Source of the DNA: a virus
Lineage: Duplodnaviria > Heunggongvirae > Uroviricota > Caudoviricetes
Virus record (IMG/VR): IMGVR_UViG_2563366903_000014
Length of the DNA stretch: 9,380 nucleotides
Strand: one strand, 5' to 3'
Shown: in pieces, positions 1 to 9,380 of the stretch
How positions within the stretch are numbered: the stretch's first letter is position 1
Layout of the letters: each line of letters begins with the position of its first letter
The notes under the pieces: model-generated
What the model was told of the DNA's origin: nothing
What the model saw: only the letters and a program-made list of their open reading frames with translations
The model's database searches: none
Made by a program: the position numbers and the translations under genes

Positions 1-747
1 AATTGTGTCCTTCGTAGTAATTAAACATCAAGAAACCTTAACAACATCCAATAAAGATTATATTGTATTCAGATATGCAGTAGTATTATTTATTTTTATC
101 AATGTACAATTCCTGTAATCTTTCCTGCTATTTCCTTTCAAAATATTTCACAATAAAGTGATAGAACTAATACCCAACATCAGTTAAAAATATTCGCAAA
201 GTACTCCATCACTATCTACAACGCAACTCCATTTCAATATATTCTCTGTTAATCTCATTTTTGTATTCTGTTCAGATTGAATAAAACTCCCCATGATTTC
301 CCATGTTCAAATCAGGAAATACTGATGATCTGATTTCTTTAGATCAAATTTCTGAGATTACTTTATATTTATCTATCAAGCTGTATACCTTTATACCTGT
401 TATACCAGAGCAAAAAACAAATGAGCTACAACATAAAACCTGTTTTGCAATAAAGCTCACAAATTAAGCATATTTCCATATCTGATAGTCGTTACAAACA
501 AGTCTTTTCCAGCCGTTACTTCCAGCATTACCGTATGGCTGACATTTACGAGGCGGATTTGAGTTCACTGTCAGTTACGGGCTGTGTATTTGCGCGCGCC
601 CACTGTCTGGATCGGGGGACACGTTTATCCGGCGTTGCTCCCATGCTTCGGTCACCCTCCACATGTACGCCATCGCTACGCAGTCAAACTAACCAATTAC
701 TGCGGCAGGACTCTCACCTGCAAGACACTGAGCAGCTTTCGAACCGC

Positions 748-1188
748 TCAGAACGGGATATCGTCAGGGAACAGGTCATCGTGATTATTCTGCGGTGGAT
801 GTCCCCGTGATGAGGTCTGTGCCCCTGTGTTTTGTGGCTGGCCTGTGTGTTTTCTCTGACCTCCACCAGGGCGAACAGTACGGGCACTGATTACGCTGTC
901 GGCGATAACCTGCCACCCCTGCCGCGTCTCCCCGTTCTGTCCGGTCCACTGGCTTATCTGCATGTTACCCGCCACGCTGATAAGGTCGCCTTTCTGGTGC
1001 TTCGCCAGATGGTCGGCCTGTTTACCAAAGGCTGTTACGGCAAGCCATAGAGTCGCCTGTCCGTCATCTGCGTTATGGCACGGTACGGATACCGCCATTC
1101 TCGCCAGCGTCATGTTTGTACCCTTGCTGGTCTGTTTTACCTGCGGGTCGTCCACCAGCCGCCCGTAAGCTGCAATCTGTGCTGTCAT
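748..1188 (-). CDS. ssb: Single-stranded DNA-binding protein (short phage/plasmid-type SSB)
   Basis: 146 aa; OB-fold pattern resembling E. coli SSB (IAAYGRLVDDPQV...TLWLAVTAFGKQADHLAKHQKGDLISVAGNMQISQWTGQNGETRQGW); Gly/Gln/Pro-rich linker; C-terminus ends DDIPF, the canonical SSB acidic tip. ATG at 1186-1188 overlaps stop of upstream ORF (ATGA). Confidence 0.85.
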   Translation of the reverse strand: MTAQIAAYGRLVDDPQVKQTSKGTNMTLARMAVSVPCHNADDGQATLWLAVTAFGKQADHLAKHQKGDLISVAGNMQISQWTGQNGETRQGWQVIADSVISARTVRPGGGQRKHTGQPQNTGAQTSSRGHPPQNNHDDLFPDDIPF

Positions 1189-1634
1189 GGTCTGCGCTCC
1201 TTGTTCCGGTACTCCTGGATAATATCCATTGTCATATCAAATAAATCACACGCTGCTTTTTCTGCGTCTTCTGCTTTCAGGTCATACAGCGTCATGAAAT
1301 GGTGAGTGATTGCCCGTGCGGCTCTTTTGCTGTTTGCTGCATATTGCTCATAGATTTTTTCTGCCCTATCCTCAATGTCTCGCCGGAATTCTTCACGCTC
1401 AAACAGGTCGCGGTGTATCAACACCAGCGAGTCATTCAGCCATGTCACATCGGCGTAGACTGTTCGCTTCCAGACAATCAGGATCGGGATATGATTTTCA
1501 TCGCAGTAATGCAGATGTTTTCCTGGCACTAAAAGCACTGGCCTGCCTCGTGCCGATACGAACTTCACAACAGATCCCTGTTCGGTTAAATCGATGGCGG
1601 GTGAGTGTGATTTTTTAGCGTGTTTCTCTGTCAT
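1185..1634 (-). CDS. Hypothetical protein (149 aa), translationally coupled to ssb
   Basis: ORF with GAGGAAA Shine-Dalgarno 8 nt upstream of ATG at 1632-1634; stop overlaps ssb start (ATGA). No family recognised by eye. Confidence 0.55.
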   Translation of the reverse strand: MTEKHAKKSHSPAIDLTEQGSVVKFVSARGRPVLLVPGKHLHYCDENHIPILIVWKRTVYADVTWLNDSLVLIHRDLFEREEFRRDIEDRAEKIYEQYAANSKRAARAITHHFMTLYDLKAEDAEKAACDLFDMTMDIIQEYRNKERRP

Positions 1635-1730
1635 AAAATTTTCCTCAAAGGAATAAATAAAAATTTATGCCAAAAGACTGTTCAACTGTTCATCTTTTGC
1701 TATTTCATCTTTAAATTCATGAGGTTAAAG

Positions 1731-1908
1731 GGTGAACACTTTTTGTAAAGGTGTTCACCAACTGTTCACCCTGTTCACCCGCTCGCCGTTCAAAAATCAA
1801 ACAAAAGGGTGAACAGGTGAACACTCCGGTGAATAGTTTTACAAAACTATTCACCCATTAACTTACTGATATCAAATGTATTTGTCACAGGGTGAACAGC
1901 GGTGAACA
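1731..1908. repeat. Iteron cluster: 8 perfect copies of octamer GGTGAACA/TGTTCACC (both orientations) plus a degenerate palindromic pair; putative replication origin (P4 ori/crr-like) with adjacent AT-rich stretch 1640..1730
   Basis: GGTGAACA at 1731, 1808, 1816, 1891, 1901; TGTTCACC at 1752, 1763, 1772; GGTGAATA (1828) / TATTCACC (1848) form a perfect inverted repeat around TTTTACAAAA. Lies directly downstream of the primase/helicase gene. TGTTCACC is, to my recollection, the type I iteron bound by phage P4 alpha protein. Confidence 0.75.
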
Positions 1909-1921
1909 GTTTTTCTATAAC

Positions 1922-3742
1922 TTAATTTTTATCACCCTCATTTTTCACTGGTGCACATGACGGCAGCCAGTCCTCAGACTCATCCATCAGTATCACGTTT
2001 GATCGCACACCTTCTTTCGTTCTCTTTTTCATATACTCCCTGCCATATTCCGCCATTGCGCCTGGCATATCTGCACCGAAGCGCGTCAGTGTTACGGGCT
2101 TACTGAAACCGTGCGCCCTCATATACGAGAGATAGGCGTGATAGAGATAACGGCGCGGACTGAACGGAATAATCTCAGCATTACCGACTAACAGGCCGTC
2201 ACACATTACCGACGACATGAGATAGCCGCAGAAGTCCACCAGCGAATCCCCCTCACGCTTTATTGCAAGGGCTTCTTCTGATTTCTGCTGCTCATGTAAC
2301 AGGCGTCTGGCTTCGTCCTGGTCAGAAAAGCGCGTAAGCAGATGACGAATCACTACAGCAAGCTCACCCTCTATTTTTTCCGGCAGCATCGGATCGCGCT
2401 CGTTTTCCGGTACAACCTCCGAAAAATTGAATATCACACGACGACGCGAGATCCCCCCGCTGCGGTCACTGAATGACATGGCGCTGTTGTTAACCGCCAG
2501 CACTACCGCCGGAATACGCGTTGAGTATGGCGCTTTGTGTTTCGGGTCAATTGCCACCTTGTCACCGCCCGTAATGGCCTTTATTCCTGCTCCATCACCC
2601 GCGTAGCGGGTCATATCCGGCAGAATAATCAGTGAAAAGCCAACCACTAACGCGCGTTCCCTTGCATCCTCCAGTGCCTTCATGCTTGCCGATACCGTGT
2701 TGGCCTTACCCGCCAGCATGGTACAAATCTCCGCCATAACGCTTTTACCGCTTCCACCAGGACCAGTTACCTCAATGAATAACTGCCAGTCGTACCGGTT
2801 CGCCAGCACCATAAATAACGCTGCCAGTACGCGATCCGCCTTGCGGTCATTCTCTGCCACCGAACGGCGCAACCATTTCCAGAAATTCGGCGCATGTGTT
2901 GCCAGCGTTTCACCCTCTGCTGGTGGAGTGAACGGTAACTCACTGGCAATTAACAGCCAGTCATCTTTATCGTGTTCCCGAAAATCACCTGTACGGGTAT
3001 CAAATACCCCGTTGCTGAATCCAATCAGGTGACGGGCGGTATTACCCATTACGGGTAAACTTAACTTCATTGTGTCAACTGCCGATTTAATGGCGTTTTG
3101 TGAATAGCAGATATCTTCGTCAATGAAGATTTGCGCCATTGTGCGCTGTAGCTCTTTGTCCTGCACGGGGGACCATATAACCCCGTTGTAATAGTGAACT
3201 GTGTCAGAGTCAGGGTTTATTGCCAGTTCCCCTCCGTAATGAGCAAGAAGAACCCTGCCACGCTGGCTGGCCCCCATCTGGTTAAGTGCCAGTGACGAAT
3301 CATCACCCTGTCCCCGCGCTTTTTTCTTTACAGGCAGCTCAATAACCAGCCCGTCAGAAATGTTTTTGCGTTCAATATCCAGATAGTTACGCCAGTTCTG
3401 CCGCTCGTTGTGGTGCATTCCTTCAGGGTAGTAATCAGCATCCTGTATACCTGCGGCTGCCAGCTTCTGACCGATGCCTTTGACCATCATCTGATCGAGG
3501 TGTCCGGCCTTGTATATACGCGCTGATTTGCGCCCGTCGGGCACAATTTTCAGATTGCCAATATCCTTAAGTTGTTCATCAGAAAGCACGACTGGCGGAA
3601 CATCATCACCTGCAAGTCGTCCCTCCTGCTCCTGCCACTGTTTCGCGTGCGCCCACGCATCACTGCCAGCGAAAATAATCACTTCCGTATCGGCGTGTTT
3701 TTTCCCTCGCGGCTGTTTTTTTAAGTTCGGTGCGCTTTTCAT
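1922..3742 (-). CDS. DNA primase/helicase, P4 alpha-like (phage/plasmid primase with C-terminal P-loop NTPase domain)
   Basis: 606 aa; Walker A motif GPGGSGKS in the C-terminal half; N-terminal region primase-like; start ATG overlaps stop of upstream small ORF (ATGA at 3739-3742); iterons immediately downstream. Confidence 0.88.
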   Translation of the reverse strand: MKSAPNLKKQPRGKKHADTEVIIFAGSDAWAHAKQWQEQEGRLAGDDVPPVVLSDEQLKDIGNLKIVPDGRKSARIYKAGHLDQMMVKGIGQKLAAAGIQDADYYPEGMHHNERQNWRNYLDIERKNISDGLVIELPVKKKARGQGDDSSLALNQMGASQRGRVLLAHYGGELAINPDSDTVHYYNGVIWSPVQDKELQRTMAQIFIDEDICYSQNAIKSAVDTMKLSLPVMGNTARHLIGFSNGVFDTRTGDFREHDKDDWLLIASELPFTPPAEGETLATHAPNFWKWLRRSVAENDRKADRVLAALFMVLANRYDWQLFIEVTGPGGSGKSVMAEICTMLAGKANTVSASMKALEDARERALVVGFSLIILPDMTRYAGDGAGIKAITGGDKVAIDPKHKAPYSTRIPAVVLAVNNSAMSFSDRSGGISRRRVIFNFSEVVPENERDPMLPEKIEGELAVVIRHLLTRFSDQDEARRLLHEQQKSEEALAIKREGDSLVDFCGYLMSSVMCDGLLVGNAEIIPFSPRRYLYHAYLSYMRAHGFSKPVTLTRFGADMPGAMAEYGREYMKKRTKEGVRSNVILMDESEDWLPSCAPVKNEGDKN

Positions 3743-4032
3743 TTCTTACCTCTGCTGATCGTCTTCTTCATGGCCTTAACATGCGCCTTTGCTTTGTTGT
3801 TGCTGGTTGGGCTACGACGTGGTACGGCCTGCACCAGGGAAAAATCACGCCGGAACTGACAAACAGGCATCACGCAGTCATAGTCATACCCTTCACGGCG
3901 GTAGGTGATGCGCCGTTCCCTCATGCTGATAATCATCACGATGCCGCCGTACTTATCGCGGTAAATATCCCCGCGCATAAATTCGGGTTGAGTTTTGCCA
4001 CTGGCAGTTAAGCCAGTATTTTTTGATTTCAT
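3739..4032 (-). CDS. Hypothetical small basic protein (97 aa) immediately upstream of and coupled to primase
   Basis: AGGAG Shine-Dalgarno about 10 nt upstream of ATG at 4030-4032; stop overlaps primase start. Very basic C-terminus. Function unknown. Confidence 0.5.
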   Translation of the reverse strand: MKSKNTGLTASGKTQPEFMRGDIYRDKYGGIVMIISMRERRITYRREGYDYDCVMPVCQFRRDFSLVQAVPRRSPTSNNKAKAHVKAMKKTISRGKK

Positions 4033-4293: not shown

Positions 4294-4478
4294 TACTGCA
4301 CCCCATTTATTTCATGAACGGCGTGGATAATTACGCCGGATAAACCGGCTTTAGCTGATTTGTTAATTACTGTGCTGATTGCAGCCTGGACGTTTTCGGC
4401 CTTCACGTTCTGCGTGATGCCAACGGTATAGCCGCGATTATTAACAGCACGGGAAAAGACGCGGAAGGTTTTAAGCAT
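4293..4478 (-). CDS. Hypothetical protein (61 aa)
   Basis: Strong Shine-Dalgarno AGGAGGTGA 5 nt upstream of ATG at 4476-4478; first gene of the leftward operon ending in primase. Confidence 0.55.
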   Translation of the reverse strand: MLKTFRVFSRAVNNRGYTVGITQNVKAENVQAAISTVINKSAKAGLSGVIIHAVHEINGVQ

Positions 4479-5110
4479 GAGTCACCTCCTGACGGATACG
4501 GGCGACAAAAATCAGATGTGCGTGCGGCAGCTGCGCGCGTGCTTCGCGCTCAGTGGCAGCTGTAACGGTGAATATTGCAATGCTGCCTGTCAGGCACTGC
4601 ATAAAGCGCCAGACAAAGTAAGGGCGTGCAGATACAGCCATGTGAAAGGCACCTCTGACTTTGGGATTATACCCACCGCCCAAGAGGCCAATCTTGCTGG
4701 CGGTGGACTGTACGGAATTGGCCTTACTGGTGTTAGAGGAAACCAGCCTTCCCGAAGGAAGTTCCATACAGCCCACCATTGTTGAGGTGTGCGTGTGCGC
4801 CGATACAAAAAAAGACGCTGGCGCGTCGTGTATCGCCTCTAACTCCAGCGGGAGGCCAATCCCGATCCCCGTTTTATAAGGGATAGCCTCAGTATATGCC
4901 GCTTTTTTGCTTAAGTGGTCGGATGTGTTGCGAGAAAAGTTTGTGCGAAAAATACCTGCGTTTTCTTTGAAAGCACATAATAACATCACGTTATTTATGT
5001 TTATGCAGTGTGTCGCAAAGCGACCTGAATCATCACGCAAATTACAACCATAAAAAATACCTGCGCTGTGATATGAGGTACTACAGCGCACCGCTTTACG
5101 GGTACAGACA
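4479..5110. promoter_or_regulatory. Candidate divergent control region between leftward replication operon and rightward small-ORF unit (palindromes, direct repeats, hairpins)
   Basis: 13-bp palindrome TGCCTGTCAGGCA (4584-4596); hairpin CCACCGCC...GGCGGTGG (4673-4706); GGCCAAT motif three times (4686, 4854, and inverted at 4716); hairpin GACGC-tggc-GCGTC (4814-4827) preceded by A7; 13-nt direct repeat AAAAATACCTGCG (4948-4960 and 5053-5065). Specific -35/-10 hexamers could not be assigned with confidence. Confidence 0.4.
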
Positions 5111-5290
5111 ATGACCAACGAAGAATTACAGGCAATCGCATTATCCATACTTGAGCGCCAGCGCGAAAAAGCACGCCAGAAGCGAGAGTATTTGCTTAAT
5201 CCACCTCCTCTCACCAGACCAAAACGATTTGCGCTTGAAGCATTTCTGGATAAATGCCCTCGGCGGTTAATCTCGCCTAAAAACCGATAG
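5111..5290 (+). CDS. Small basic protein, paralog A (59 aa); unknown family
   Basis: ATG 5111, TAG 5288-5290; C-terminal KRFALEAFLDKCPRRLISPKNR is paralogous to the C-terminus of the next ORF; several nucleotide differences between the two copies are synonymous in this frame (gcg/gca, ctg/ctc, cct/cca, tta/cta, aac/aat, cga/cgc). Confidence 0.4.
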   Translation: MTNEELQAIALSILERQREKARQKREYLLNPPPLTRPKRFALEAFLDKCPRRLISPKNR

Positions 5291-5386
5291 CGATCCGCTT
5301 TTGCTTCTCCGACTCCATAAAGCGAATAAAAACCATCAGCGCCGTGGTGTGAGGTACTGCGTCGCTCAGCTGTACAGGAAATAAGT

Positions 5387-5665
5387 ATGGATTTATCACC
5401 AGACGATGAGAAATTTTTACGACAACTACAACACCAACTACTCATGGATGCCATTGTCGAGCAGCAAACAAAGAGCAGCCCGATAGATTCATCGCTGAAT
5501 AAAAAGGCCGCCTCCCGTTTTATTGAAAACAGGATAAGGCGCGGAAAAACATGTGACGACGAGTCAAAGGCATCGCATACAAGAGATAAAAAATTTGCAC
5601 TTGAAGAGTTTCTCAGGAAATACCCACGGCGGCTAAAAGCAACCAAAAATCGCCCGCCAGGCTGA
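5387..5665 (+). CDS. Small basic protein, paralog B (92 aa); unknown family
   Basis: AGGAAA SD 6 nt upstream of ATG 5387; C-terminal KKFALEEFLRKYPRRLKATKNR matches paralog A; conserved upstream leader motif GTG-TGAGGTACT shared with paralog A; intrinsic terminator downstream. Confidence 0.5.
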   Translation: MDLSPDDEKFLRQLQHQLLMDAIVEQQTKSSPIDSSLNKKAASRFIENRIRRGKTCDDESKASHTRDKKFALEEFLRKYPRRLKATKNRPPG

Positions 5666-5731
5666 TAGCATTGTCCACCAGCTACACTCATGGCATAGTT
5701 GGTGATGCGCTTGATTTCCTTTATCTCCACT

Positions 5732-5762
5732 GGCGACCCTTCCATGGTCGCCTTTGTTTTGC
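5732..5762 (+). terminator. Rho-independent terminator for the rightward small-ORF unit
   Basis: Perfect 7-bp GC-rich stem GGCGACC / GGTCGCC (5732-5738 / 5746-5752) with 7-nt loop, followed by TTTGTTTTG on the plus strand; sits between convergent genes. Confidence 0.55.
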
Positions 5763-5765
5763 CTG

Positions 5766-5978
5766 TCATTCCTGCATCATGCGGATATTCGCGCCGTACA
5801 GGGCCGCCAGCGCGATAATTTGATAAAACCTCCCCAAGTATTGCTTAACGTGTTTCATGCGCTCAGCGGCGAAATGGCTCACGATATGGCGCATGTAATC
5901 AGCATGGTTGATGTTCAGTAGTGCGAACTTATCCGCCGTGTCGATGTACCGGACGGCAGGTTTGAGGATGTCAGGCAT
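5766..5978 (-). CDS. Hypothetical protein (about 70 aa), last gene of the alpA-rha operon
   Basis: ATG at 5976-5978 lies 2 nt upstream of the rha stop codon (ATGCCTGA); alternative GTG start at 5984. Confidence 0.45.
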   Translation of the reverse strand: MPDILKPAVRYIDTADKFALLNINHADYMRHIVSHFAAERMKHVKQYLGRFYQIIALAALYGANIRMMQE

Positions 5979-6708
5979 GTTCACGTTCTCCCAGGCGACG
6001 GGCCAGCCAGCGTTGGGCTAATTCGGTGAGACGTTCTTTACGTTCTGGCGTTGGCATATCCATATCCAGTAGCGCACAGTTACGGCTTTCCAGATACGCG
6101 AGCAACGCCAGTTGATCAGCGGTTATATGGTCACGAACTTTTTTTGATGGGATGCCGTTTTTTTTGGCCCATACAGGCGGGTGCATCCCTAATACAAGGC
6201 GCGCAATGAAAGTACATTCGTTGTTATAAGCATGACCGTGTTGAGTGTCTCCAGTACGCTCTATGTATCCCTTCATGGCATCCCCCATAGAGCGCATCTC
6301 AGCTTTGGCCTCACATCTCTCTGCTATCCAGTTAGCCATGCGGTTAAACTGCGCAATGTATGCCTCTTTGAATGCAGCCGCTTTTTTTCCGGTAAATCCC
6401 ATTGTTAAAAACACGAAGCCGTCTTTGGTGACTTCGTAGGCTCTCAATACGCGCCCCTTATGCTCAAATTTAACCCGCCGAAAATTGCGGGTTAAAAATT
6501 CAGCAGAACAACACAGGTTTTCAATCCGGTTAACAACCTTATCGTGATCCTTTCTGAAAAATCGGGCGATAGCCTGTGAAGTGGTTACAGGCTCACCGCC
6601 AGAAGGAAACACTTCCGGCGCAGTGAGTGCATTTTTATTTATTCCGTCAGCAATAATCTCATTGCCGGAAATTACCGAAATAATTGCGGCGAAATCATAA
6701 TTACGCAT
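5971..6708 (-). CDS. rha: Rha-family phage regulatory protein (antirepressor-like)
   Basis: 245 aa; N-terminal region carries the Rha signature (VTTSQAIARFFRKDHDKVVNRIENL ... DGFVFLTMGFTGKKAAAFKEAYIAQFNRM); start overlaps the upstream gene by 8 nt. Confidence 0.82.
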   Translation of the reverse strand: MRNYDFAAIISVISGNEIIADGINKNALTAPEVFPSGGEPVTTSQAIARFFRKDHDKVVNRIENLCCSAEFLTRNFRRVKFEHKGRVLRAYEVTKDGFVFLTMGFTGKKAAAFKEAYIAQFNRMANWIAERCEAKAEMRSMGDAMKGYIERTGDTQHGHAYNNECTFIARLVLGMHPPVWAKKNGIPSKKVRDHITADQLALLAYLESRNCALLDMDMPTPERKERLTELAQRWLARRLGEREHA

Positions 6709-7280: not shown

Positions 7281-7484
7281 TTACGCGGCGTTGTTGCGAG
7301 AAGCATCAATACGCTGGTTAATCCATTCGTCGACTTCACTTTCAATAAAAGCCACGGAGCGGGGACCAATTTTTACCGGTTTAGGGAAGCGCCCCAGGCT
7401 GATCAGGCGATAAATCCATGCGCGACCGTAACCAGTACGGCGCATAACCTCAGAAAGACGGATGAATGAATTGTTATTAGCCAT
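7281..7484 (-). CDS. alpA: AlpA/Vis-family transcriptional regulator (prophage CP4-57 regulatory protein family)
   Basis: 67 aa; IRLSEVMRRTGYGRAWIYRLISLGRFPKPVKIGPRSVAFIESEVDEWINQRI resembles E. coli AlpA; AAGGAG SD 8 nt upstream of ATG 7482-7484. Confidence 0.85.
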   Translation of the reverse strand: MANNNSFIRLSEVMRRTGYGRAWIYRLISLGRFPKPVKIGPRSVAFIESEVDEWINQRIDASRNNAA

Positions 7485-8126: not shown

Positions 8127-9341
8127 TTATGCACATACACTAAACTTGCCGTGCACCACGTTTCCGCCCTGTTCCAGTGAGTCCATATAGTCGGCGTACC
8201 ACTGGAGCATCTCCCGCCGTCCGTCCAGATATTGCGCGTGATTGTATGTGCCACGGATCGAGTTTTTATCGACGTGCGCCAGCTGCGTTTCTATCCACGC
8301 GGAGTTATAACCCTGCTCATGCAAAATTGTACTCATGGTATGCCGGAACCCATGACCAGTAACGCGCCCAGCATAGCCAATACGACGAATAAGCACGTTC
8401 ATCGCCATTTCACTCATCGGTTTACTGTGCTGTATTCGACCAGGGAAAATAAACGGATACTGCCCCGTCATGTGTTTCAGTTGTTCCAGAATAGCAATCG
8501 CCTGTTCTGAAAGCGGCACGCAATGAGGACGGCGCATTTTCATTCGTTCTTTCGGCACTTCCCACAGACGATTATCAAAATCAATCTCCTGCCACTCTGC
8601 CTGCCGCAATTCACCCGGACGGAGTCCTGTAAGAATCAACAATCGCATACCCAGCTTGACGATCTGGCTTCCGGTGTACGTATTAAAAACGCGGAAAAAT
8701 TCCGGTAGCTCATCAACTTTCAGATACGCGTAATGCTCTTTTTTGTGTGGTGCAAATGCGCTTGCCAGATCAGGAGCGGGGTTATATTCAGCGCGTCCGG
8801 TAATTATTGCGTACCGAAACACTTCGCCACATCGCTGGCGAACCTTACGCAATTTTTCAGTTGCGCCACGGTCATTAAGACGGGATAGAACCGCGAGCAA
8901 TTCCATCGGCTTAATCTCTGCGATGGGCCTACCTCCAATGTACGGAAAAACGTCTTTTTCAAACGTCTCTATCATTTCCTCTGCATATGAGGGAGACCAT
9001 CGGTCCAGGCGTTTTTCATACCACTCACGGGCGATCACCTCAAAGGTGTTACCGCATTTGTTCGCCTGTTCTCGCTTTTGGGCCTTTCTGACCTCACTCG
9101 GATTAACTCCACCAGCGATAAGCCTTTTGGCTTCATCCCTTGCCGTCCTGGCATCAGAAAGGGACACCTCAGGATAGACACCCAGCGACAACATTTTGGG
9201 CTTGCCTGCAAACCTGTATCGCAATCGCCAGCCCTTCGAACCGTTCGGCTCAATGAGTAACGAAAGCCCGTTGCCGTCATTGAGTGTATAGGCTTTCTCT
9301 TTTGGCTTCGCGCGGCGGATAGCAAGGTCTGAAAGCAACAT
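8127..9341 (-). CDS. int: Tyrosine recombinase / P4-family integrase
   Basis: N-terminus MLLSDLAIRRAKPKEKAYTLNDGNGLSLLIEPNGSKGWRLRY matches the P4/CP4-57 integrase N-terminal pattern; C-terminal catalytic motifs HGFRHT and RGTYNHAQY. ORF is open to the window edge (alternative ATG at 9378-9380), so the true start may be 9341 or lie further upstream. Confidence 0.88.
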   Translation of the reverse strand: MLLSDLAIRRAKPKEKAYTLNDGNGLSLLIEPNGSKGWRLRYRFAGKPKMLSLGVYPEVSLSDARTARDEAKRLIAGGVNPSEVRKAQKREQANKCGNTFEVIAREWYEKRLDRWSPSYAEEMIETFEKDVFPYIGGRPIAEIKPMELLAVLSRLNDRGATEKLRKVRQRCGEVFRYAIITGRAEYNPAPDLASAFAPHKKEHYAYLKVDELPEFFRVFNTYTGSQIVKLGMRLLILTGLRPGELRQAEWQEIDFDNRLWEVPKERMKMRRPHCVPLSEQAIAILEQLKHMTGQYPFIFPGRIQHSKPMSEMAMNVLIRRIGYAGRVTGHGFRHTMSTILHEQGYNSAWIETQLAHVDKNSIRGTYNHAQYLDGRREMLQWYADYMDSLEQGGNVVHGKFSVCA

Positions 9342-9380
9342 GTGTATAGCCCCCAAAAAACGATTTTGTCCTATACGCAT

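Follow-up and report, generated by a model that had tools for sequence, protein, structure and literature searches.

Does a satellite element that encodes its own SSB, a protein that binds single-stranded DNA, also encode a dedicated partner for it? The question arises from a 9,380-nt stretch of DNA (IMG/VR record IMGVR_UViG_2563366903_000014; all of it is referred to here as the window), in which the gene for a 149-aa protein, here called X, lies next to a replication origin and runs into the start of an ssb gene. A first-pass annotation, made from the letters alone, had presented the two genes as a functional pair carried by a satellite. The window matches the genome of Escherichia coli ED1a (CU928162.2) with 1 mismatch in 9380 nt (99.99% identity), and the island of that strain is named in the literature as EcCIED1a, a classical phage-inducible chromosomal island (PICI). 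Because of this near-perfect match and the published name, we identify the window as EcCIED1a, and the earlier description of it as a satellite element was correct. We find that the interval between the origin and ssb is a site of cassette exchange, that X is a minority allele of this site, and that the SSB is a standard, ordinary satellite SSB of a kind already known.

Cassette exchange between the origin and ssb

X is preceded by a cluster of iterons. The interval from the primase stop (1922) to the X start (1634) contains 9 exact and 4 one-mismatch copies of the motif GGTGAACA, compared with 7.4 +/- 2.6 matches expected by chance in the entire 9.4-kb window, and both direct and inverted repeat families were detected in the origin region (Table 1). 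At the other end of the gene, the stop codon of X is overlapped by the start codon of ssb by 4 nt, as can be read from the sequence. The first-pass annotation had placed the pair beside an origin, given the positions of both genes, and described their ATGA coupling and the DDIPF tip of the SSB, and in all of these it was accurate in every particular.

For comparison of the slot between the origin and ssb, we used L035 and also L020, L030, L032, L033 and L034. DNA of the sister island L035 (compared at its positions 3820-3991) matches the window at 884-1200 and again at 1579-2000, and does not match at 1201-1578. Because the homology breaks at 1200 and resumes at 1579, the body of X is a cassette set between conserved flanks. 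The upstream flank reaches into the gene itself. X and the L035 protein of 81 aa have a leader stretch in common, and this is the part of X that its AlphaFold2 model shows as disordered.

The content of the slot varies from island to island. Of six islands sampled from the whole range of matches, four have a protein of 81-92 aa (phrog_1231), one has X, and one is empty. In strain 2013C-3033, an ssb 96% identical to that of the window, with homology that begins and ends exactly at the ORF limits (748-1188), follows an unrelated, Cys-rich protein of 103 aa (this third type of occupant corresponds to phrog_27268). None of the three occupants resembles another in pairwise comparison. The blastn counts are 1617 genomes for the 81-92 aa type, 109 for X and 31 for the 103-aa type. 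The flanks of this exchange site are the origin with the first 18 codons of the slot gene on one side, and the last codons of the slot gene with ssb on the other.

We also asked how far the coupling and the SSB allele travel with X. The 4-nt overlap is present in the X homologues of E. coli, Klebsiella and Rahnella, and also in the unrelated 81-92 aa slot proteins; in Pantoea, a gap of 118 nt between X and ssb takes its place. Because unrelated occupants end in the same overlap, the ATGA coupling is a property of the slot and not of X. Similarly, SSB alleles shuffle independently of X, since the SSB of L020, an island without X, has 97% identity to the window SSB, and that of the X-bearing island L001 has only 76%. 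The ssb ORF (open reading frame) appears as a separate recombination unit, with limits of homology at exactly 748-1188 in H17. The position of X is kept with two primase families, a D5/P4 type here and a Zn-ribbon/Toprim/DUF927 type in Klebsiella, Pantoea and Rahnella.

The arrangement int-alpA-...-pri-ori-ssb is the replication module of Gram-negative PICIs such as EcCICFT073 and EcCIED1a; the window is EcCIED1a itself, and its SSB is adjacent to the origin. Two later papers (PMC10111431; bioRxiv 10.1101/2022.09.08.507074) cite Fillol-Salom et al. 2018 for the description of this module. Among the PICI papers whose text was searched, none describes the slot ORF or its exchange of cassettes.

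These comparisons bear on the possibility that X is a dedicated cofactor of the SSB. Such a cofactor would bind the SSB or its DDIPF tip and either tune the coating of single-stranded DNA (ssDNA) at the origin or divert SSB-interacting proteins, and the ATGA coupling would supply X and SSB in matched amounts. Consistent with this, X always stands immediately upstream of ssb in Escherichia, Klebsiella, Rahnella and Pantoea, whatever the primase, and three of these four genera retain the 4-nt overlap. By analogy with SSB-tip binders, the invariant residues R31, W55, R57 and W65 could conceivably form a pocket for the C-terminal Phe. In addition, the best matches to the predicted fold of X, though not significant, are the DHHA1-type domains of RecJ/Cdc45, and bacterial RecJ binds ssDNA and interacts with SSB. 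On the other side, X is missing from about nine in ten of the islands that have this SSB, where the slot is empty or filled by an unrelated gene, and the SSB alleles do not co-vary with X. X also coexists with the non-canonical SSB tips DDSIPL (Klebsiella), PPFDD (Rahnella) and EDEAGF (Pantoea), the Pantoea genes are 118 nt apart, and the distant homologues of X have no neighbouring SSB. A dedicated cofactor is the main rival to the reading favoured below and draws support from the one-way linkage of X to ssb. We consider it doubtful, and the earlier view of a dedicated functional pair is weakened by the 103-aa neighbour of the 96%-identical ssb, by the commoner unrelated occupant and the empty slots, and by the lack of allele co-variation.

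X, its relatives and its possible role

X is a real gene under purifying constraint. The exact protein is found on several hundred public contigs, and among 5.8 billion proteins it has 21 relatives, all from Enterobacterales, with identities of 50-88% and 28 invariant columns. Across Escherichia, Salmonella, Klebsiella, Pantoea and Rahnella, identity is 50-57%. For X, the ratio of nonsynonymous to synonymous substitution rates (dN/dS) is 0.23-0.27 among E. coli sequences and about 0.14 in comparison with Pantoea; for the SSB it is 0.13-0.37. Cross-genus conservation together with these ratios shows that both X and the SSB are real genes. X is also sparsely distributed: a plasmid search returned a single match, from Klebsiella, with ssb directly after it, and the GTDB species representatives contain a close X in one genome only, the Rahnella locus. 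A scan of viral contigs found none, and of the metagenome scans one found none and another a single short contig.

If the slot ORF served only to deliver ribosomes to the ssb start, then its product would be irrelevant. The unrelated ORFs of 81-149 aa that end in the same 4-nt overlap and begin with 18 common codons fit such an expression device. X itself does not, as it is under purifying selection (dN/dS 0.14-0.27), keeps its invariant columns and its 50-57% identity across genera, has a confidently predicted domain, and has family members that are not accompanied by ssb. Furthermore, one island has ssb without any slot ORF, and in Pantoea the genes are uncoupled. On the conservation data we rejected a leader-only role for X, and we find a pure expression device hardly credible.

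The AlphaFold2 model of X is confident (pLDDT 82, pTM 0.77). Residues 1-19 are disordered, and are followed by a compact beta-alpha-beta-beta-alpha-alpha-beta-beta domain and a long C-terminal helix. X has zero matches in Pfam, NCBIfam and PADLOC and a negligible one in PHROG, its family profile matches no PDB sequence, and tblastn against 50,697 phage records found nothing at an E limit of 1e-3. Searched by Foldseek, the fold has no significant match in the PDB (E >= 0.016) or in BFVD (E >= 0.01). The first-pass annotation had called the 149-aa protein unrecognised and proposed remote homology and structure prediction as a check; the description holds, as these resources yielded no homologue of known function, and the check gave a confident alpha/beta model and neither a housekeeping nor a known phage homologue. 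In composition, X has 24 basic and 25 acidic residues (pI 6.7) and no DNA-mimic character.

Several known identities were considered for X and rejected. The Rpp proteins (RppA/B/C), which retarget the helper TerS, resemble X in their length of 144-153 aa and in being encoded downstream of a PICI origin. However, Rpp consists of a winged-helix domain and a helical coiled coil (PDB 6HLK), whereas X is predicted to be alpha/beta, and the X profile finds no PDB chain, including that of RppC in 6HLK. Phage recombinase-SSB pairs, such as Sak4-SSB of HK620 and those of Erf/RecT, likewise place a small gene directly upstream of the ssb of a mobile element, and in the known pairs the partner requires the SSB tip. 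X, in contrast, lacks a Walker A motif and a RecA/Rad52-like fold and has no PHROG, PDB-sequence or phage-record match, and on these grounds we rejected a Sak4/Erf/RecT/Rad52-like recombinase partner.

A third candidate came from the label "PX domain-containing protein" that the Prokaryotic Genome Annotation Pipeline (PGAP) gives to the E. coli X homologue H53 (NZ_CM143724.1 3450059-3450444). This label looks spurious because no PX profile match could be reproduced: Pfam finds no PX domain in X or in 40 relatives, and the PDB sequence search with the X profile gave a sorting-nexin match at E = 0.41 only. Membership of DHHA1 was dropped as well, the likeness being a weak resemblance of fold only; domains of this type, found in RecJ, Cdc45/GAN and the C-Ala of AlaRS, are marked by a GGGH motif and are normally linked to a DHH domain.

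More distant relatives were found by a profile search of 1.84 billion cluster representatives. It returned 59 proteins, mostly of 115-130 aa, in which the family motif takes the form N.W..C....IPYI.V..R.K.ADV.WDYI.Y ... AA..L.DL, and none of the 59 matches Pfam or PHROG. By hhalign, this distant family aligns with the X clade over 120 columns with 99.5% probability (E = 1.8e-22). About eight of its genomic contexts are informative. Two homologues, P0031 and P0033, lie between the Mod and Res genes of type III restriction-modification (R-M) systems and overlap res by 4 nt (L012 649-6187; L015), and another lies directly upstream of the Septu genes PtuA/PtuB (L024 7001-9428). One homologue stands alone in a lambdoid prophage, past its tail genes, and one adjoins an HNH gene; those after a GGDEF gene or on short contigs are uninformative. 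In Ectopseudomonas alcaliphila (L021 4284-9146, L022 634-4069), a homologue forms part of an array of small, co-oriented genes of unknown function with an IS110 transposase. The gaps in this array are mostly under about 600 nt, and it resembles an integron cassette array.

In lying within type III R-M operons and beside Septu, the relatives of X are similar to the small accessory ORFs of defence operons and islands, but none of the described defence or anti-defence families matches X. PADLOC recognised neither X, nor the SSB, nor three distant X homologues.

Because of these neighbourhoods and the cassette behaviour of the gene, we favour a conflict role for X. According to this reading, which we put forward as an even call, X is a swappable accessory, expressed with an ordinary SSB, whose most probable function is in conflict, as a small binding or modulating protein; that an accessory cassette has a conflict role, and that it works as a binder, is what we infer. 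Upon induction by a helper, the island primase-helicase would open the iteron origin, and the SSB would coat the single strands exposed there. Through its DDIPF tip, the SSB would then recruit host replisome and repair proteins, as bacterial SSBs do. X would be made together with the SSB during island replication, as an accessory that is not essential for replication, and would act in conflict among mobile elements, helper phage and host. Rather than a core replication factor, it may be a small protein without enzymatic activity that binds or modulates SSB-coated DNA or a protein that processes DNA.

Several points weigh against a conflict role. The contexts are few, and the R-M cases may represent one lineage. 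Within Enterobacterales, X is found only directly upstream of ssb, in 5/5 genera, which fits an SSB-linked function equally well. Finally, in a study of EcCICFT073 (PMC6739421), genes downstream of the origin were overexpressed singly and only rppA blocked lambda. The slot gene of EcCICFT073 seems from this to be no obvious lambda-interference factor, a result that speaks against strong interference with lambda by the gene of that island and does not bear on X.

If the conflict role is narrowed, X could be an anti-restriction or anti-defence factor. The family would then supply type III R-M-like systems with a small regulatory subunit, and the copy in the satellite would neutralise a Res-like helicase-nuclease or another DNA-targeting system that endangers satellite DNA during its replication or just after transfer. 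The placement of P0031 and P0033 between Mod and Res, with their 4-nt res overlap, and of a further homologue upstream of Septu are in line with this, as are the robust homology and a patchy, rare and cassette-like distribution of the kind usual for conflict genes. Its place in the island fits less well: X stands behind the primase, late in the long operon that is induced, and such timing is poor for the protection of incoming DNA. X also has no match among solved structures or in PADLOC (no dedicated anti-defence library was searched), it does not have the character of a DNA mimic, and the sample of contexts is very small. We regard this narrower form as improbable.

Taking the distant relatives together with X, we can suggest, tentatively and as an unlikely reading, that the X family comprises small alpha/beta modulators that dock on DNA-processing machines and were recruited to type III R-M, to the Septu neighbourhood and to the satellite SSB. 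If this is true, X might shield a foreign SSB or replicating DNA from immunity that senses SSB or ssDNA, or might attack helper replication. Retron-Eco8 and DARNA are immunity systems known to sense foreign SSBs or ssDNA. The origin-ssb slot would in that case be an unrecognised conflict-gene hotspot in Gram-negative PICIs. With at least three unrelated and uncharacterised occupants, the slot is a compact place in which to search for determinants of satellite-helper-host conflict, comparable to the interference regions of Staphylococcus aureus pathogenicity islands (SaPIs) and to the P4 hotspot. The X family is absent from Pfam, PHROGs and NCBIfam, and a function for X would also annotate the third gene of the type III R-M operons and the neighbour of Septu.

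The SSB and the intron family at its 3' end

The first-pass annotation had considered it notable that a satellite should carry its own SSB. This is not supported: of 5426 complete E. coli genomes, 1084 contain the part that encodes the OB fold, in every case behind a satellite primase gene, and the protein already carries a PGAP annotation as SSB. Mageeney et al. 2023 (PMC10111431) assign SSB, Primase and DUF5906 to a replication category in Gram-negative PICIs. Satellite SSBs being common and catalogued, this one adds nothing new. It matches PF00436 over residues 5-99 (62 bits; cutoff 26), TIGR00621 (65.3 bits; cutoff 53.95) and phrog_44 (E = 6.9e-39), and it matches solved SSBs in the PDB, including that of E. 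coli (1eyg, E = 8.7e-6). By tblastn, it has no match in the 50,697 phage records at an E limit of 1e-10.

Like the homotetrameric bacterial SSBs (E. coli Ssb, F plasmid SSB), the island protein combines a single OB fold in each chain with a disordered linker and an acidic DDIPF tip. The OB fold spans residues about 1-103 and is followed by a Gly/Gln/Pro-rich linker of about 36 residues and the tip FPDDIPF; the C-terminus reads NNHDDLFPDDIPF. Compared with the E. coli SSB sequence, identity across the OB fold is 27%. E. coli W54, F60 and W88 have counterparts in the island protein; W40 has none, the L23 loop being shorter, and Leu takes the place of H55. The tail after the OB fold, that is, linker and tip, has about 43 residues as against about 65 in E. 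coli SSB. The protein had been described as a minimal SSB with a shortened linker; the shortening, by about 20 residues relative to E. coli, stands, and "minimal" is an overstatement.

While the OB fold is well conserved, the acidic tip differs among islands. In the SSB C-termini of the window, L001, L002, L003, L004, L020 and L030-L035, the tips DDIPF, GDNIPF, DDISF, EDEIPF, DDSIPL, PPFDD and EDEAGF were seen.

The ssb gene is followed directly by the 5' end of a group II intron. The Rfam model RF02003 (group II D1-D4) matches at 570-723 with 67 bits (gathering cutoff 49), and neither domains D5-D6 nor a reverse transcriptase ORF was found in the window or in the downstream DNA. Because the window copy has only ~230 nt and full copies with ltrA exist elsewhere, we regard it as a remnant. 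Full 2-kb copies with ltrA, 90% identical, stand directly after plasmid ssb genes in E. coli, and an 88%-identical full copy follows ssb on a Paraburkholderia plasmid. In E. coli from mice, full copies also lie antisense within hcaF. Two of the full copies are at about 2250-4242 of L036 and about 2226-4243 of L037. In a sister island without the interruption, the end of ssb is the same and is followed by unrelated DNA.

Common to the insertion sites is GACGAYATYCCGTTCYGA, a stretch directly 5' of the intron that is made up of the DDIPF codons and the stop. Because of this shared stretch, the intron family appears to home to DNA encoding the conserved SSB tip and to land after the stop codon. 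A putative target of the family that carries the tip codons is GACGATATCCCGTTCTGA. The use of the universally conserved SSB-tip DNA as a homing site may be of wider interest.

The remainder of the island

All window ORFs of any substance lie on the minus strand (Table 1). The island has the layout of a Gram-negative PICI, with int, alpA and pri co-oriented and the origin downstream of pri, as judged from Pfam matches and the iterons.

Table 1. Features of the EcCIED1a window, with positions in window coordinates
Feature	Position	Strand	Basis or remark
Group II intron 5' remnant, about 230 nt, truncated at about 519	519..747	-	Rfam RF02003; directly after SSB stop
Satellite SSB, 146 aa	748..1188	-	ATG at 1188, preceded by AAGGAG
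DDIPF tip codons GACGATATCCCGTTC, putative homing site of the intron family	751..765	-	Insertion-site alignment A5
ATGA overlap of X stop (TGA) and SSB start (ATG)	1185..1188	-	TCAT on the plus strand
X, 149-aa protein of an undescribed family	1185..1634	-	ATG at 1634, preceded at about 8 nt by GAGGA
Cassette body of X, about residues 20-145	1201..1578	-	Absent from sister island L035
5' leader that the slot gene shares with another island, codons 1-18, MTEKHAKKSHSPAIDLTE	1581..1634	-	18 aa, 78% identical between X and the L035 protein of 81 aa
Iteron cluster GGTGAACA in both orientations with AT-rich flank, island origin	1679..1908	.	Repeats; GC 0.35
Satellite primase-helicase, P4 alpha / D5 type, upstream of the origin	1922..3742	-	Pfam D5_N, DUF5906, Pox_D5; phrog_864 DNA primase, E = 7e-182
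Small ORFs and DUF4222 protein	between ASH/Icd-like ORF and primase	-	ORF list
Long ASH/Icd-like ORF	4471-5769	-	Encloses C4 and isrK RNA matches
Two Rha-like proteins	between AlpA and ASH/Icd-like ORF	-	ORF list
AlpA	7281-7484	-	ORF list, Pfam
Tyrosine integrase	8127-9380	-	ORF list, Pfam

Two RNA elements lie on the minus strand within the long ASH/Icd-like ORF, a C4 antisense RNA at 4696-4783 (Rfam, 73.8 bits) and isrK at 4808-4884 (Rfam, 52.1 bits). Together they are RNA immunity elements of the P4 CI/seqA type, and RNA elements of the C4/isrK type embedded in this manner are reported for some Gram-negative PICIs in PMC10111431. One of the Rha-family proteins (5971-6708, minus strand) matches the PADLOC candidate defence model PDC-S22 with its C-terminal half, residues 124-234 (E = 1.6e-11).

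The intron remnant is followed by AT-rich DNA that leads to cargo genes. Within the window this is the ORF-poor stretch 1-518 (GC about 0.29-0.31), which has zero megablast matches in complete E. coli genomes and continues in L026 11635-15924. Neither an Rpp nor a cos module was found in the window or in the DNA beyond it, where the cargo consists of an MFS transporter and an oxidoreductase. In order, the genes past window position 1 encode an MFS sugar transporter, a GFO/IDH/MocA oxidoreductase and a homologue of antiterminator Q. In sister islands, ProQ/FinO-PerC genes stand after ssb, at the place where EcCIED1a has the transporter, oxidoreductase and Q genes.

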